From assembly GCA_016840085.1 (NCBI GenBank), contig JAEOTA010000014.1:31025-95024 (forward strand): a stretch of DNA of 64,000 nt, in the 5' to 3' direction. The notes below the pieces were generated by a model. It worked only from the letters and a program-made list of their open reading frames with translations, was not told the DNA's origin and made no database searches. Position 1 is the stretch's first letter. Each line of letters begins with the position of its first letter. The position numbers were made by a program, and so were the translations under genes. Source of the DNA: Promethearchaeota archaeon. GTDB lineage: Archaea > Asgardarchaeota > Lokiarchaeia > Sigyniarchaeales > SOKP01. Shown here in pieces: positions 2,071-22,427 of this stretch.

Positions 2071-2754
2071 ATGAAACTTAATAATTGGAAAAAATGGGTG
2101 TACATATTCCATATGATTGGATGTGCCCAATTTATATTATTTACAGTCTTGGGGATGGTGTTTTATACAGGAGGTACTTATAATAACCCTACTACTCCGG
2201 GTTATTCTTTTTTTGCAAACTTTATTAGCGATATAGGTCGAACTGTATCACATTCAGGAGAATCAAATTTTATTGCTTTTCTTTTCTTTAGTATAGCATT
2301 TTTCATAGTTGGCATCTCATTAATGCCCTCATTTTTAGCATTTCCAATTTTCTTTAAAAAAGAACATCGATTAAAATGGATTAGCAATATAGGATCTATT
2401 TTTGGAATTTTCACTGCTTTTTGTTTTGCAGGAATTACTTTTGCTCCGTCTGATATAAATCCTGCAGGACATATCTTTTTTGTTTATGGAGGTTTTCTTT
2501 CAGGGCTGGTACCGTCAATCTTATTTACAATCATCATTTTTCTTAAAAAAGAATATCCTTCACGATATGCTTTTAACTTTATGATATTTGCAATAATTCT
2601 AGTTGGATATGTAATACTATTATTTGCTGGTCCTGATAATTTGGTAATCCAAGTAACGGGGCAAAAAATTGTACTATATAGTTTTGCTATATGCTTATTC
2701 ATCCATGGATATGGTACATGGAAGTTTGAAAAAGAAAGAATTACTAAAGAATAA
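2071..2754 (+). CDS. Multi-pass membrane protein (DUF998/Frag1-like)
   Basis: About 6 hydrophobic segments; YxGG...GYSFxxNFISDIG motif. Confidence 0.6.
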   Translation: MKLNNWKKWVYIFHMIGCAQFILFTVLGMVFYTGGTYNNPTTPGYSFFANFISDIGRTVSHSGESNFIAFLFFSIAFFIVGISLMPSFLAFPIFFKKEHRLKWISNIGSIFGIFTAFCFAGITFAPSDINPAGHIFFVYGGFLSGLVPSILFTIIIFLKKEYPSRYAFNFMIFAIILVGYVILLFAGPDNLVIQVTGQKIVLYSFAICLFIHGYGTWKFEKERITKE

Positions 2755-2774
2755 CAGGAAATAGCTTTTTTTAT

Positions 2775-4334
2775 TTATTCATATTCTATTGTACTTGGTG
2801 GTTTATTAGATATATCATAGACAACACGATTAATGCCTTTTACTTCATTAATAATTCGAGTTCCAATTTTTTCTAATAGATCCATATCAAGTTTAGCGAA
2901 ATTAGCAGTCATGACATCGAGAGATTCGACTGCTCTAATGGCACATATATACTCATAAGTCCTATAATCTCCCATAGTGCCTACAGTTTTTAAGGGGAGA
3001 AATACGCAAAATGCTTGCCATAAACTCTCATATACCCCCGCATTCTTTATTTCTTCGATCAAAATCTCATCTGCATCTCTTAATATCTCGAGCTTTTCCT
3101 TATCTATTGGACCAATAATTCTAACTGCTAACCCAGGTCCAGGGAACGGATGTCTTGTGATAATTTCTTTAGGAACACCCAATTTCATACCAATTCTTCT
3201 AACTTCATCTTTATATAAATCTTTCAATGGTTCGATAATTTCCAACTTCATATTATCTGGGAGAGTTAAGTTATGGTGTGATTTTATTTTTGCAGAAGCT
3301 TTACTTGTGGCACTAGTTTCTACGCGATCAGGATAAATAGTGCCTTGGGCTAGATACTTAATGTCGGGATACGTTTTTTCAAGTTCAATAGTTTTATGTT
3401 CAAAAACTTCAATAAATGAATGACCAATAATTCTACGTTTTTCCTCTGGATCTTCAATATCTTTAAGTCTTTCTAAAAACAAATTTTCAGCATCCACATA
3501 ATGGAAGTTCTTAAAATTTAGTTTGCTTTCAAATGTATTCTGGACATCAATATGTTCATTTTTTCTTAGAAGACCATTATTTACAAAAATAGAATGTAGT
3601 CTATCTCCGATTGCTTTATGTATTAAAATTGCTGTTACTGAGGAATCTATGCCCCCACTTAACCCTAAGATTACTCTATTATCTGAACCTACTTCATTTA
3701 TAATGTTTTCAATTGTTTGTTCAATCCAATTTTCCATTTTCCATTCTTTTTTACAATTGGCAATTTTAAAGATGAAATTCTCAAGAATTATATTTCCTTT
3801 AGGAGTATTTACTACTTCAGGATGAAATTGGACCCCAAATAACATTTTTTCTTCATTCCCATAAGCAGCAATAGGGCAAGTTTCTGTTTTAGCATAAATT
3901 TTGAATCCATTAGCCATTTTTGTAATTTGATCTCCATGAGACATCCATACAATCTCTTCCTTTCCTAATGTATCAAATAATAAATTTTCTCCCAGAATTT
4001 TTAAATTAACTTTCCCATATTCTTTTTTTTGCTTCTGTTCTACTTTTCCTCCTAAAATTTGCATAATTACATGATGCCCATAACAAATTCCTAAAACTGG
4101 AATTTTATTATCAAATGTAAACTTAAAAAAGTCTTTAGATAAATTTGGACTGTTATCTTCATAGACACTACTAGGTCCACCTGAAAGGATTATAGCTTTT
4201 GGTTTAGTTTCCTTAATTTTCTTATAGTTGATATCAAAAGGTAAAATTTCAGCGTACACACCTAAATCTCTAACTCGTCTGGTAATTAAATGAGTATACT
4301 GCCCACCAAAATCTATAATGAGAACATTATCCAT
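2775..4334 (-). CDS. guaA: GMP synthase (glutamine-hydrolysing), fused GATase + synthetase
   Basis: DFGGQY, LGICYG, QFHPE, LSGGIDSSV, IKSHHN, HPFPGPGL, KPPSTIEYE. Confidence 0.97.
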   Translation of the reverse strand: MDNVLIIDFGGQYTHLITRRVRDLGVYAEILPFDINYKKIKETKPKAIILSGGPSSVYEDNSPNLSKDFFKFTFDNKIPVLGICYGHHVIMQILGGKVEQKQKKEYGKVNLKILGENLLFDTLGKEEIVWMSHGDQITKMANGFKIYAKTETCPIAAYGNEEKMLFGVQFHPEVVNTPKGNIILENFIFKIANCKKEWKMENWIEQTIENIINEVGSDNRVILGLSGGIDSSVTAILIHKAIGDRLHSIFVNNGLLRKNEHIDVQNTFESKLNFKNFHYVDAENLFLERLKDIEDPEEKRRIIGHSFIEVFEHKTIELEKTYPDIKYLAQGTIYPDRVETSATSKASAKIKSHHNLTLPDNMKLEIIEPLKDLYKDEVRRIGMKLGVPKEIITRHPFPGPGLAVRIIGPIDKEKLEILRDADEILIEEIKNAGVYESLWQAFCVFLPLKTVGTMGDYRTYEYICAIRAVESLDVMTANFAKLDMDLLEKIGTRIINEVKGINRVVYDISNKPPSTIEYE

Positions 4335-4692
4335 AATATTTACAAGTTTTTTTATCCGATTTGAAAATTAAGCAAGATAAATAATTATTTAATTGAAAGT
4401 TTTTTTAGGTTTAATATTTAATAAGCAATCTAAAAAAAATAATTTTTCCAAATAATCATATACTTTTTCTAAGCTAAAATCTTAAATAATTTGGATATTT
4501 AAAAATGATTAAATATATCAGAATACATAGAATGTGATTTTATTTATTCGCAACGCTAAAATTGGGGAACTAATTCCCGTGACCATTATATTTAATAATT
4601 CAATTTTTTTAAATTGAAATATCCCTTCAGTTATATGATAAATCTGTTAAAAGTTATTTATTAATTCAAATTTAAATTTAAGATGATTAATA

Positions 4693-19096: not shown

Positions 19097-19486
19097 TTAA
19101 TTCTTATTTTGCTCTAATAACTCTTGAATTGTTTTCAAAAGTTCTTTACCAGAAAAAGGTTTTGTAATATAGGCATCAGCACCTAGTTTCTTTCCCTTTT
19201 GAACATCCTCATTAAAACTTTTCACTGTGAATAATACAACAAGGATATCTCTATATCTTTCATTATTCTTGATTTCCTCGAGAACGCTATAGCCCGATCG
19301 GCCTGGCATCATTATATCTAAGAGGATTAGGGCGATTTTTTCATAATTCTCTTCTACCATTTTCATTGCTTCTTTTGCATTATTACTTGTTATCGTTTCA
19401 AAATCTCCTAACTTTAAAAATTTCTCAGTGAGATTAACAATATCTGGCTCATCATCTACAATTAGGATCGTATTTTTTCCAGACAT
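19097..19486 (-). CDS. Stand-alone response-regulator receiver (CheY-like)
   Basis: ILIVDDE, LLDIMMP, T, GADAYITKPF. Confidence 0.92.
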   Translation of the reverse strand: MSGKNTILIVDDEPDIVNLTEKFLKLGDFETITSNNAKEAMKMVEENYEKIALILLDIMMPGRSGYSVLEEIKNNERYRDILVVLFTVKSFNEDVQKGKKLGADAYITKPFSGKELLKTIQELLEQNKN

Positions 19487-19600
19487 AAGTAAACCCTAAA
19501 CACAATTATTAGTCTTAGTTAAGAATAAATTTATTTAACTATTATATATTGATTTATGCATTTATATAAATGACCTTATTTTTTGCAATTGTGATAGACA

Positions 19601-20260
19601 TTGGTAAGAAAAAATAGACTCCCGAAATTTCCAGATGATTATATTGATGACAAAGCGGAAGAATATGATAGTTCAAGCTGGATGGAGCGCAATCAGAAGA
19701 GAGCCACTTTATTAAGTATTCAATATCTTTACGACGAAAAATTAAGTGGTAAGGCAGACAAGGGGGTAAATATAGGAGATTCCTACCTAATTTTAGACTT
19801 AGGATGCGGCACAGGATTTTCATCTGAAATTATGATTGAAAATGGATTTAGAGTAATTGGAATAGATATTTTAAGTGATATGTTATTAAAAGCAAGAGAT
19901 AAGAAAAAAAAATTTGAAAATTATAAAAGTTTAGAATTAATATTAGCAGATATTAATTTTTTACCTATAAAGGGAGCCTCAATTGATCACATTATTTCAA
20001 TTTCATCCTATAATTTTATAACGTATGGAAAAGACAACTACGGAGAAAGGATTAAGCTTCTAAATGATACAGCAAAATATTTGAATAAGATTTTAAAGAA
20101 AAAAGGAAGAATTATTATTGAATTTTACCCTAAGAATGATAAGGAACTAAAGGTTTTTAAAAGATCATTTATAATGAATGGATTTGAAGGCTACATGGTG
20201 AAAAATAAGCCTTCTCAAAAATCAGGTCAAACCTATTTATTATTAAAGAAAATATCTTAA
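19601..20260 (+). CDS. Class I SAM methyltransferase, Bud23/WBSCR22-like
   Basis: ILDLGCGTG, IISIS, EFYPKND, NGFEG..TYLLL collinear with Bud23 as recalled. Confidence 0.75.
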   Translation: MVRKNRLPKFPDDYIDDKAEEYDSSSWMERNQKRATLLSIQYLYDEKLSGKADKGVNIGDSYLILDLGCGTGFSSEIMIENGFRVIGIDILSDMLLKARDKKKKFENYKSLELILADINFLPIKGASIDHIISISSYNFITYGKDNYGERIKLLNDTAKYLNKILKKKGRIIIEFYPKNDKELKVFKRSFIMNGFEGYMVKNKPSQKSGQTYLLLKKIS

Positions 20261-20270
20261 AAATGGGAAA

Positions 20271-21413
20271 ATGGGAACATGCAAATTCTGTGGTAAACTT
20301 GATAGGAATATCTCTGAAGTCCTACAAGTATGTAGGGCTTGTATTCTAAATGGAGATTGGGAGATAATTGAACCACATATTTTCCAAGTGCATAAACAAG
20401 TTCGGCAACTCGTTGATTTACCAGATAAACCTCCTAAAGCAGAACGACCAAATATTAAACTAAACTGCAATTACTGCATAAATGAATGTTCTCTTTCTGA
20501 AAATGATGTAAGTTATTGCGGATTAAGAAACATTCAAAGAAAGAACTCAGGGGAATTGCCATTTCCAACAAAATCAAAGGGTTATATTCATGGCTATATA
20601 GATCCAAATCCAACAAATTGTTGCAATGCTTGGTTTTGCCCCGCAGGAACTCCAGCAGGATATCCCGAATTCTCGAATTATGAAGGCCCTGAATTTGGTA
20701 CATACAGCTACGCTGCCTTTCTATATGGATGTACGTTTTCGTGTTTGTTCTGCCAAAATAGTAGCCATAAGCAATTTCAGAAGCGAAATCTATTTGATGG
20801 TGAAGCTTTAGCAAATCAAATAGTAAAAAATGAAAAGATTACTTGTCTATGCTATTTTGGGGGAACTCCCGAATCCCAATTACCGTTTTCTATTAACTTA
20901 GCAGAACTTATTTTAGAAAAAATGGAAAACGAAGATAAAAAGAGAAAATTCAGGATATGCTGGGAATGGAATGGAAGTGGAAGACAAGATTTAGTAGAAA
21001 AATGCATGAGACTCGCAATAAAAACAGGAGGAAATATTAAATTTGATTTAAAAAGTTTCAATGAGAAATTAAATTTAGCAATGTGTGGTGTCAGTAATAG
21101 TAGAACACTTGAAAATTTCAAATTTTTAGCGGAGAAGTATTTTGGAACTAGAGGGAAAGACATGCCAGAGATGAGTGCGTGTACACTGATGGTTCCCGGA
21201 TACACTACTCAAGAAGAAGTTGAGCTGATTGCTGAATTTGTTAGTTCCATAAACGAAAATATTCCTTTTAGTTTATTAATTTTTCATGGAGATTATCAAA
21301 TGAGGGATTTAGGGATTACTCCTCGTAAGCAAGCGTTAAAAAGTTTTGAAGTAGCAAAAAAATATTTAAAAAATGTGAATTTGGGAAATAAATTTCTTTT
21401 AGGAATTGTTTAA
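20271..21413 (+). CDS. Radical SAM protein (PFL-activase/AmmeMemoRadiSam-like) with N-terminal Cys clusters
   Basis: GCTFSCLFCQN, CNYCxxxC..CGLR, FDLK, TLMVPG. Confidence 0.85.
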   Translation: MGTCKFCGKLDRNISEVLQVCRACILNGDWEIIEPHIFQVHKQVRQLVDLPDKPPKAERPNIKLNCNYCINECSLSENDVSYCGLRNIQRKNSGELPFPTKSKGYIHGYIDPNPTNCCNAWFCPAGTPAGYPEFSNYEGPEFGTYSYAAFLYGCTFSCLFCQNSSHKQFQKRNLFDGEALANQIVKNEKITCLCYFGGTPESQLPFSINLAELILEKMENEDKKRKFRICWEWNGSGRQDLVEKCMRLAIKTGGNIKFDLKSFNEKLNLAMCGVSNSRTLENFKFLAEKYFGTRGKDMPEMSACTLMVPGYTTQEEVELIAEFVSSINENIPFSLLIFHGDYQMRDLGITPRKQALKSFEVAKKYLKNVNLGNKFLLGIV

Positions 21414-22121: not shown

Positions 22122-22427
22122 ATACAAAAAGCACGCATACGGTTGTCATCTACTCAATTAGATTCATTGCAATCAGTATGCGAGCAAGTGTTACAGGTTT
22201 GTCGTAGTCAGGGCATCAAAAAAAATGGTCCTATTCCCCTTCCTACTAAAAGATTGCGTGTACCAGTAATGAAGGCGCCTAGTGGCCAAGGTACTAGTAC
22301 CTGGGCAAAATTTGAGATGAGAATTCATAAAAGACTTTTTGAAATTATCGCAAATGAGCGCAGTATGCATCTCATCATGAAAATTCAGATTCCTGAATCA
22401 GTTCTCGTAGAAATTGAATTAATGTAG
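22122..22427 (+). CDS. rps10: 30S ribosomal protein uS10 (probable ATA start)
   Basis: (M)QKARIRLSST, GPIPLPTKRL, EMRIHKRL; in-frame TAA at 22116; SD GGTGA at 22110-22114. Confidence 0.93.
   Translation: MQKARIRLSSTQLDSLQSVCEQVLQVCRSQGIKKNGPIPLPTKRLRVPVMKAPSGQGTSTWAKFEMRIHKRLFEIIANERSMHLIMKIQIPESVLVEIELM

Follow-up and report, generated by a model that had tools for sequence, protein, structure and literature searches.

The question raised by the locus studied here is whether archaea possess a member of the Bud23/WBSCR22 family and, if so, whether the gene at this locus is the counterpart of the eukaryotic enzyme. The gene is an open reading frame (ORF) at positions 19601-20260 of a stretch of 64,000 nucleotides from a Promethearchaeota archaeon (GenBank assembly GCA_016840085.1, contig JAEOTA010000014.1, positions 31,025 to 95,024); the whole stretch is referred to as the window and the ORF as the window gene. 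Together with Trm112/TRMT112, Bud23/WBSCR22 forms the 18S rRNA (guanine1575/1639-N7)-methyltransferase (K19306; PDB entries 4QTT/4QTU and 6G4W), and the pair is conserved among eukaryotes as a factor of 40S biogenesis. Bourgeois et al. 2017 and van Tran et al. 2018 stated that no archaeal protein is significantly homologous to Bud23, and that the archaeal 16S rRNAs analysed to date carry no modification at the corresponding guanine (PMC5372719, PMC6144793). Our full-text literature search returned no paper that joins Bud23/WBSCR22 with Asgard or Lokiarchaeota and none on 'archaeal Bud23'. Two papers on archaeal ribosome-biogenesis factors leave Bud23 unmentioned in their main text, and an entry in the supplement of Birikmen et al. 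2021 has BUD23 among the factors traced. The answer that we favour, with a little better than even confidence, is that the window gene encodes a predicted active Bud23-family methyltransferase of the type named W below, which probably acts on RNA of the translation apparatus and whose target is likely unlike that of a more canonical copy encoded elsewhere in the same genome.

By sequence, profile and predicted fold the window gene clearly falls within the Bud23/WBSCR22 family, as the first-pass annotation, made from the letters alone, had supposed. In a HMMER search of the PDB sequences (177,635) the five best matches were all Bud23 chains (E 1e-17 to 9e-12), including yeast Bud23 (1e-17), human BUD23 (1e-12) and 9xab (9e-12), an entry labelled merely 'methyltransferase-like protein'; the first unrelated match was PH0226 (3.6e-10). 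Scores of this order far exceed what chance would give. The alignment to 4qtt_B covered residues 46-215 of the query and 33-198 of Bud23 and placed EFYPKND opposite QFYPKND of yeast, so that the motifs said earlier to be held in common with yeast Bud23, FYPKND included, are indeed shared. Identity with one eukaryotic Bud23 representative was 27% (BLASTP, 4e-21), and hhalign paired the profile of the window gene's subfamily, over 191 columns, with one built from 16 representatives of eukaryotic Bud23 (probability 100%, E 8e-46). An AlphaFold2 model of the window protein had a predicted local distance difference test score (pLDDT) of 90.9 and a predicted template modelling score (pTM) of 0.89. 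When this model was compared to the PDB with Foldseek, the top 8 matches were all Bud23 (4qtu_B with E 6.5e-19, template modelling (TM) score 0.91 normalised to the Bud23 chain and root-mean-square deviation (rmsd) 2.1 Å) and the next were generic methyltransferases (E 2e-11, TM 0.5-0.6, rmsd 5-8 Å), a fold match that is to be read with the caveat that the 95-sequence alignment behind the model contained eukaryotic Bud23 sequences. The similarity to Bud23 runs over the full length, from the helices of the N-terminus to the GF.G...YL.L hairpin of the C-terminus, whereas generic proteins match only the half that binds S-adenosylmethionine (SAM).

The domain databases were less specific. The Pfam models matched by the window protein were Methyltransf_31, _25 and _11 (~48 bits, above the gathering cut-off), and NCBIfam yielded generic methyltransferase domains only, with no equivalog near cut-off. 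We know of no Pfam model dedicated to the catalytic domain of Bud23, so that only generic domains are to be expected, and because every Bud23 gives these same matches they are uninformative on function. Automatic annotation names some of the homologues '18S rRNA (guanine1575-N7)-methyltransferase', and the Joint Genome Institute (JGI) names some 'UbiE'. The presumed archaeal host was also right, the close homologues being Promethearchaeota (Loki-type Asgard archaea).

The gene and its conserved elements are as follows.

19601..20260, + strand: window gene ORF, 219 aa, beginning with TTG and ending with TAA (20258-20260); class I SAM-dependent methyltransferase of the Bud23 family, in its divergent W-type or 'NF-E' subfamily
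Residues 11-36 of the ORF translation: N-terminal P..Y.DD.A.EY..SS..ERNQ...T
Residues 64-77 of the ORF translation: ILDLGCGTG.S.EI
19802..19816, + strand: motif I, GCGTG (residues 68-72), the SAM-binding loop; the preceding Asp66 aligns with yeast D53
19865..19867, + strand: Asp89 at the end of strand β2, aligning with the ribose-binding acidic residue D77 of yeast Bud23
19949..19951, + strand: Asp117 of motif III, aligning with the adenine-binding residue D99 of yeast
Residues 131-135 of the ORF translation: IISIS
19997..20017, + strand: motif IV, in which S133-I-S135 is retained and followed by N138-F139 where yeast has Q121-W122
Residues 160-179 of the ORF translation: L...LKK.GR...EFYPKND
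20120..20131, + strand: motif VI, E174-F-Y176-P177, with Glu in place of Gln and with Tyr and Pro retained
Residues 194-215 of the ORF translation: GF.G...YL.L tail

All five motifs listed by the first-pass annotation were found in the translation, collinear and letter for letter. The ORF, which lies in a window of ~30% G+C, is intact at 45-89% identity in 99 related loci, indicative of constraint; its TTG (Leu-coded) start and N-terminus recur in the homologues, and since these begin with the same residues the TTG start is credible. In the 95-member alignment 16 positions reach a conservation of 90% or more, and the window protein retains them all. Among the conserved residues are G68, C69, G70 and G72, and the 16 positions include those that align with yeast D53, the GxGxG loop, D77, D99, S118, Y159 and P160, which were described as SAM-binding or pocket residues of Bud23 by Husain et al. 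2010 (PMC2896518). A C-terminal basic tail was not found: the ORF stops just past the methyltransferase domain, at residue 219, and the Pfam model WBS_methylT (PF12589) was not matched, in agreement with what had been noted at first sight. The basic extension, which is needed for nuclear functions in eukaryotes, is missing from all archaeal members compared.

A different picture emerged when the search was turned around. A hidden Markov model (HMM) of eukaryotic Bud23, run over the whole genome in six frames, did not return the window gene as its best hit, as a reciprocal relation would have it. First was a gene on another contig (C9), matched over its full length at C9:101792-102382 (2.7e-41, 142 bits), and the window gene came second, also at full length (profile positions 14-203; 3.4e-29, 102 bits). 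The third match, a generic methyltransferase, was confined to the SAM-binding half (within profile positions 30-132; 9e-14, 52 bits). The first-pass annotation had named a grouping with generic Methyltransf_11 proteins as the outcome that would speak against Bud23; the eukaryotic HMM instead matched the window gene along its whole length at 102 bits and generic proteins at no more than 52 bits.

G000:C9:101759-102394 (L029:2760-3395), + strand: second Bud23-like gene (R-type), 211 aa, without tail

The C9 copy matched human BUD23 (3.5e-26) and yeast Bud23 (1e-23) in the PDB at full length, including the RPE...Y N-terminus, with the first non-Bud23 match at 3e-7, and it is 33% identical (1e-29, BLASTP) to the same eukaryotic representative. 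The window and C9 proteins are ~33% identical to each other. On these comparisons the window gene is the more divergent of two Bud23-family copies in the genome; it probably arose by an old duplication. The original reading thus holds in so far as the archaeon encodes a tailless Bud23-family protein in the window, and fails in so far as this protein was taken for the genome's Bud23 counterpart, the C9 gene being closer and keeping the Q-W...Q residues discussed below.

When 1.8 billion cluster representatives were searched exhaustively with HMMER, 92 matches below 1e-10 were obtained, which could be sorted by their termini and motifs into five groups.

E: eukaryotic Bud23, with a ...YTGRKR tail
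R-type: the type of the C9 gene, also found in metagenome-assembled genomes (MAGs) that NCBI names just 'archaeon'
O-type: includes the protein of Ca. Odinarchaeum yellowstonii
G-type: genome G025
W-type: the type of the window gene

In a tree of 90 rows (IQ-TREE, LG+C20+F+G4 by posterior mean site frequencies; bootstrap short of full convergence) the eukaryotes were separated from all archaeal sequences (94/96), and the R sequences (96/93) and the W and G sequences together (92/89) formed clades, R, O and W+G meeting in a polytomy. The window and C9 copies thereby fall in separate supported clades. The W, G, R, O and eukaryotic clades group together, with generic outgroups on very long and unstable branches that leave the root unfixed. 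A sister relation of the R-type with the eukaryotes, seen in a quick tree with a weak support of 85, was dropped, as it was not recovered in the careful tree and an approximately unbiased (AU) test did not reject the alternative in which W+G join the eukaryotes (p 0.39); only the similarity scores and the residue pattern were retained. Rooting by generic methyltransferases was likewise given up, because the outgroup branches were 2-3 long and shifted position between trees, and we claim no root. On this phylogeny no archaeal subfamily can be singled out as the nearest to the eukaryotic proteins.

A distinction between the two copies lies in the predicted substrate pocket, which in class I methyltransferases is lined by motifs IV and VI. 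Three positions of the window protein stand out: 138 and 139, which in the model follow strand β4 (motif IV) and align with yeast Q121 and W122, and 174, which precedes the FYP of β5 (motif VI) and aligns with yeast Q157. These positions are Gln, Trp and Gln in 100% of the eukaryotic, R-type and O-type sequences and Asn, Phe and Glu in 100% of the W-type sequences; the four G-type sequences have Asn-Phe in all and Glu in half of the cases. Accordingly the C9 copy carries Q-W...Q and the window protein N138, F139 and E174. In the docking-based Table 3 of Husain et al. 2010, Q121 hydrogen-bonds the target guanine (PMC2896518). The substitutions, being chemically mild, are suggestive of a changed target in the window copy and do not prove it.

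We sampled 201 Asgard genomes, representing 27 GTDB families, for both copies. Strong W-type matches (E <1e-45) were found solely in the window's own family, in 36 of its 41 genomes with the window's own counted, and the W-type query gave matches of 5e-20 to 1e-30 in all three genomes of the sister family, which belongs to the same order. The C9 query matched at E 1e-12 or better in 41 of the 41 genomes of the window's family, 8 of these being cross-matches to the W copy or a fragment, so that the R copy itself was seen in 33 of the 41. It also matched in the sister family (3/3 genomes), in an Odin-like family (3/4) and in one further family (1/1), and gave no match in the other 23 of the 27 families sampled. 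When metagenomes were scanned with an alignment of non-Loki W-type sequences, the matches were Loki-type loci only, with the same synteny, and a word-indexed search with the Odin protein returned Odin relatives only. The presence of the Bud23 family in Asgard archaea (the Loki-type order, Odinarchaeum and one further family) and in unclassified archaeal MAGs is thus well supported.

Several MAGs labelled by NCBI as Hermod-, Hod-, Odin- or Thorarchaeota carry W-type genes of 60-77% identity with Loki-type synteny (L036, L042, L048, L049, L063, L068, L069, L083, L089). These labels are suspect, because the GTDB-based search gives strong W-type matches in one order alone, and they are probably wrong.

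The genes around the window gene were compared over the 99 related loci, to which the synteny counts below refer.

19097..19486, - strand: stand-alone response-regulator receiver gene, the divergent neighbour (Pfam Response_reg, E 4e-24); upstream in 97/99 loci
19487..19600, no strand: AT-rich, divergent intergenic region, with a TATA-like element TTTATATAA at 19561-19569 and GTGAT at 19591-19595, just 5' of the TTG start
20271..21413, + strand: PflA-like radical-SAM gene, 380 aa, starting 10 nt downstream; adjacent in 88/99 loci
22143..22427, + strand: gene of ribosomal protein uS10 (small-subunit head), two genes downstream (Pfam Ribosomal_S10, E 1.6e-24); in the flank of 75/99 loci

The response regulator, methyltransferase, radical-SAM and uS10 genes form a conserved block in the window's order. 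To judge by their sequence, the TATA-like and GTGAT elements may act as promoter and Shine-Dalgarno sequence, and the radical-SAM gene is probably co-transcribed with the window gene. A functional pairing of these two genes was considered and rejected: the radical-SAM gene occurs in 150 of the 201 Asgard genomes, with nearly all families without a Bud23-like gene among them, and was not found in some of the genomes with a W-type gene. As its spread is independent of that of the methyltransferase, we take the adjacency as lineage synteny. The radical-SAM protein has a Cys-rich N-terminal segment, gives a single match per genome in those 150 genomes and was not near the cut-off of any NCBIfam equivalog. 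In four metagenome relatives (L115, L116, L118 and L119) the methyltransferase has a tandem duplicate of the response-regulator gene upstream of it. The uS10 ORF of the window was listed from a TTG, and its Pfam profile was matched from position 4 only.

Ribosomal protein genes also accompany the other copies. The C9 copy lies head-to-head with an eS25-like gene (L029:2312-2611, - strand; Pfam Ribosomal_S25 27.7 bits, just below the cut-off of 28.8) and beside a gene for a Gtr1/RagA-type GTPase (L029:1067-2020). In the sister family, genome G165 has the R-type, W-type, uS10 and eS25 genes one after another on one strand (L032 = G165:C36:122000-128500, 2591-4644), an order that is probably ancestral; in the window's family the R and W genes are unlinked. 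The duplication would then have taken place in tandem, beside the genes of two small-subunit head proteins, and the copies would have been separated later in the window's family. The single O-type gene of Odin (L033:2058-3399, Ca. Odinarchaeum yellowstonii; L031) divergently adjoins a gene that by eye has a uS7-like N-terminus, uS7 being a small-subunit head protein. The synteny lends weak support to a ribosomal role.

As Bud23 works with Trm112, the first-pass annotation had advised a look for the latter, and a homologue was found in the genome.

G000:C85 (L001:1063-1698), + strand: Trm112 homologue, 211 aa (Pfam Trm112p, E 4e-10, above cut-off)

This match falls into two pieces across residues 9-170, which implies a central insert of ~120 residues between the halves of the zinc-knuckle domain. 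Archaeal Trm112 was shown to bind many class I methyltransferases through a β-zipper (PMC6144793), and in the 2017 review of Bourgeois et al. the archaeal proteins have 60-80 residues, with 130-140 residues and a central region in Crenarchaeota.

In the mechanism that we propose, the window protein would probably pair with this Trm112 homologue via its β3 strand, as Bud23 does, and would probably methylate a purine base of small-subunit rRNA, or of other RNA of the translation apparatus (possibly tRNA), during assembly of the head. The nucleotide or atom recognised would on balance be another one than the N7 of the G1575/G1338 equivalent that is expected for the canonical copy; this is favoured because the three pocket positions are changed (Q-W to N-F, Q to E) with respect to both eukaryotic Bud23 and the C9 copy.

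A number of observations weigh against this proposal. The RNA target is deduced from the family and from the synteny, which is confined to one order and may only reflect shared ancestry, and the pairing with Trm112 is deduced from the likeness to Bud23. The pocket changes are mild (amide for amide, aromatic for aromatic, Gln to Glu) and could suit the same guanine, and the roles assigned to the residues derive from a docking model rather than from a substrate complex. In the window's family 5 genomes have the R copy only (three of them at least 99% complete), 7 or 8 have the W copy only and none lacks both, counts that rest on single-protein queries and MAGs; such one-copy genomes hint at an overlapping function of the two copies. 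Furthermore, the G025 lineage holds a protein of the NF-E type as its sole copy, which means that such a protein is not necessarily a 'second' activity. Finally, a tree in which W+G was constrained to group with the eukaryotes was not rejected by the AU test (difference in log-likelihood 4.8, p 0.39).

Several of these observations would suit the strongest alternative, which is close to what the first-pass annotation supposed: the window gene is a functional archaeal Bud23 that makes 7-methylguanosine (m7G) at the equivalent of yeast G1575 and E. coli G1338, acting either in place of the C9 copy or redundantly with it. The E. coli G1338 position is nearly universal in small-subunit rRNA, so that its conservation would not discriminate between the readings. 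The fold, the SAM site and the scaffold of motifs IV and VI are the same, with S135, Y176 and P177 retained, and chemically conservative pocket changes, the retention of one copy or the other in all genomes of the family, the solitary NF-E-type copy of G025 and the unrejected position beside the eukaryotes all speak for this alternative. Eukaryotic Bud23 nevertheless has its reciprocal best hit in the other copy, and of the two only the C9 protein has the three invariant residues, one of which aligns with the proposed guanine-binding Q121. Moreover, most genomes of the order have kept the two copies separate, at an identity of ~33%, and this speaks for roles that differ. We regard a functional Bud23 in the window as rather unlikely.

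Improbable, in our view, is that the window gene encodes a generic small-molecule or protein methyltransferase of the UbiE/Methyltransf_11 type that resembles Bud23 only through the shared Rossmann fold. Such an enzyme would be in line with the generic Pfam and NCBIfam domains without an equivalog at cut-off, with the UbiE names given by JGI and with the match to PH0226 (3.6e-10), but generic Pfam matches are what one expects where a Bud23-specific model of the methyltransferase domain is wanting, the likeness to Bud23 spans the full length where generic proteins match the SAM half alone, and a gap of 50 bits separates the window gene from the next methyltransferase of the genome. We give about as little credence to a mainly non-catalytic assembly factor or partner of the canonical copy, with methylation as a secondary property: in ribosome biogenesis of eukaryotes such as yeast and human the Bud23 protein is required and its catalysis dispensable (PMC5372719, PMC4472018), and the tandem placement beside the R copy, seen in the sister family, would be in keeping with a heteromeric pair, yet the whole subfamily strictly conserves its SAM-binding residues, indicating selection for catalysis, the two genes are unlinked in the window's family and we saw no sign of interaction between the copies.

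The preferred reading, an active W-type enzyme with a target of its own, can be extended to a bolder one that we put forward tentatively, well short of an even chance. Archaea would have at least two old Bud23 subfamilies, of which the NF-E type would be a Trm112-dependent RNA methyltransferase not described before, adding a new base methylation to the small-subunit head of Loki-type Asgard archaea, and the QW-Q type would make a eukaryote-like m7G. If this is true, Bud23-type maturation of the head predates the eukaryotes and the reviews are wrong on its archaeal absence. The occurrence of the family in archaea by itself overturns the review statement that there is no archaeal homologue. It also makes the reported absence of the guanine mark testable in existing Asgard cultures, provided that these encode the genes. 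With the window gene comes a subfamily whose pocket is altered and which could reveal a new rRNA or tRNA mark, and the R and W paralogues form a natural pair for working out how Bud23 chooses its target. With a patchy spread in Asgard archaea (4 of the 27 families) and a tree that leaves the order of branching open, the data are not yet evidence for an Asgard origin of eukaryotic Bud23.

Known proteins resemble the window protein to different degrees. PH0226 of Pyrococcus horikoshii (PDB 1VE3, uncharacterised), the best non-Bud23 sequence match in the PDB, is a poor match in structure (TM 0.55, rmsd 10.6 Å) and is without the termini specific to Bud23. The Hvo_0019-Trm112 complex of Haloferax volcanii (PDB 6F5Z; PMC6144793), which has an unassigned substrate, contains an archaeal class I enzyme of similar size, but the likeness of Hvo_0019 to the window protein is that of a generic fold only (Foldseek rank 32, TM 0.59) and places it outside the Bud23 family. 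The Trm112 homologue of the present genome, with its 211 residues, is longer than the archaeal types of the 2017 review. The R-type C9 copy is of the same family as the window protein, of similar length and likewise without tail; it is unlike the window protein in its RPE...Y N-terminus and its Q-W...Q residues, in its closer match to the solved Bud23 chains (1e-23 to 3.5e-26, versus 1e-17 to 1e-12 for the window protein) and in its linkage to an eS25-like gene where the window gene is linked to uS10. From Bud23 of yeast and human the window protein differs by an identity of 27%, by the missing basic extension, by N-F and E in place of Q121-W122 and Q157, by an insert of 12-13 residues before motif I and by a lineage-specific insert after β2, and it has in common with them the class I fold, the N-terminal helices, the C-terminal hairpin, the SAM residues and FYPKND.

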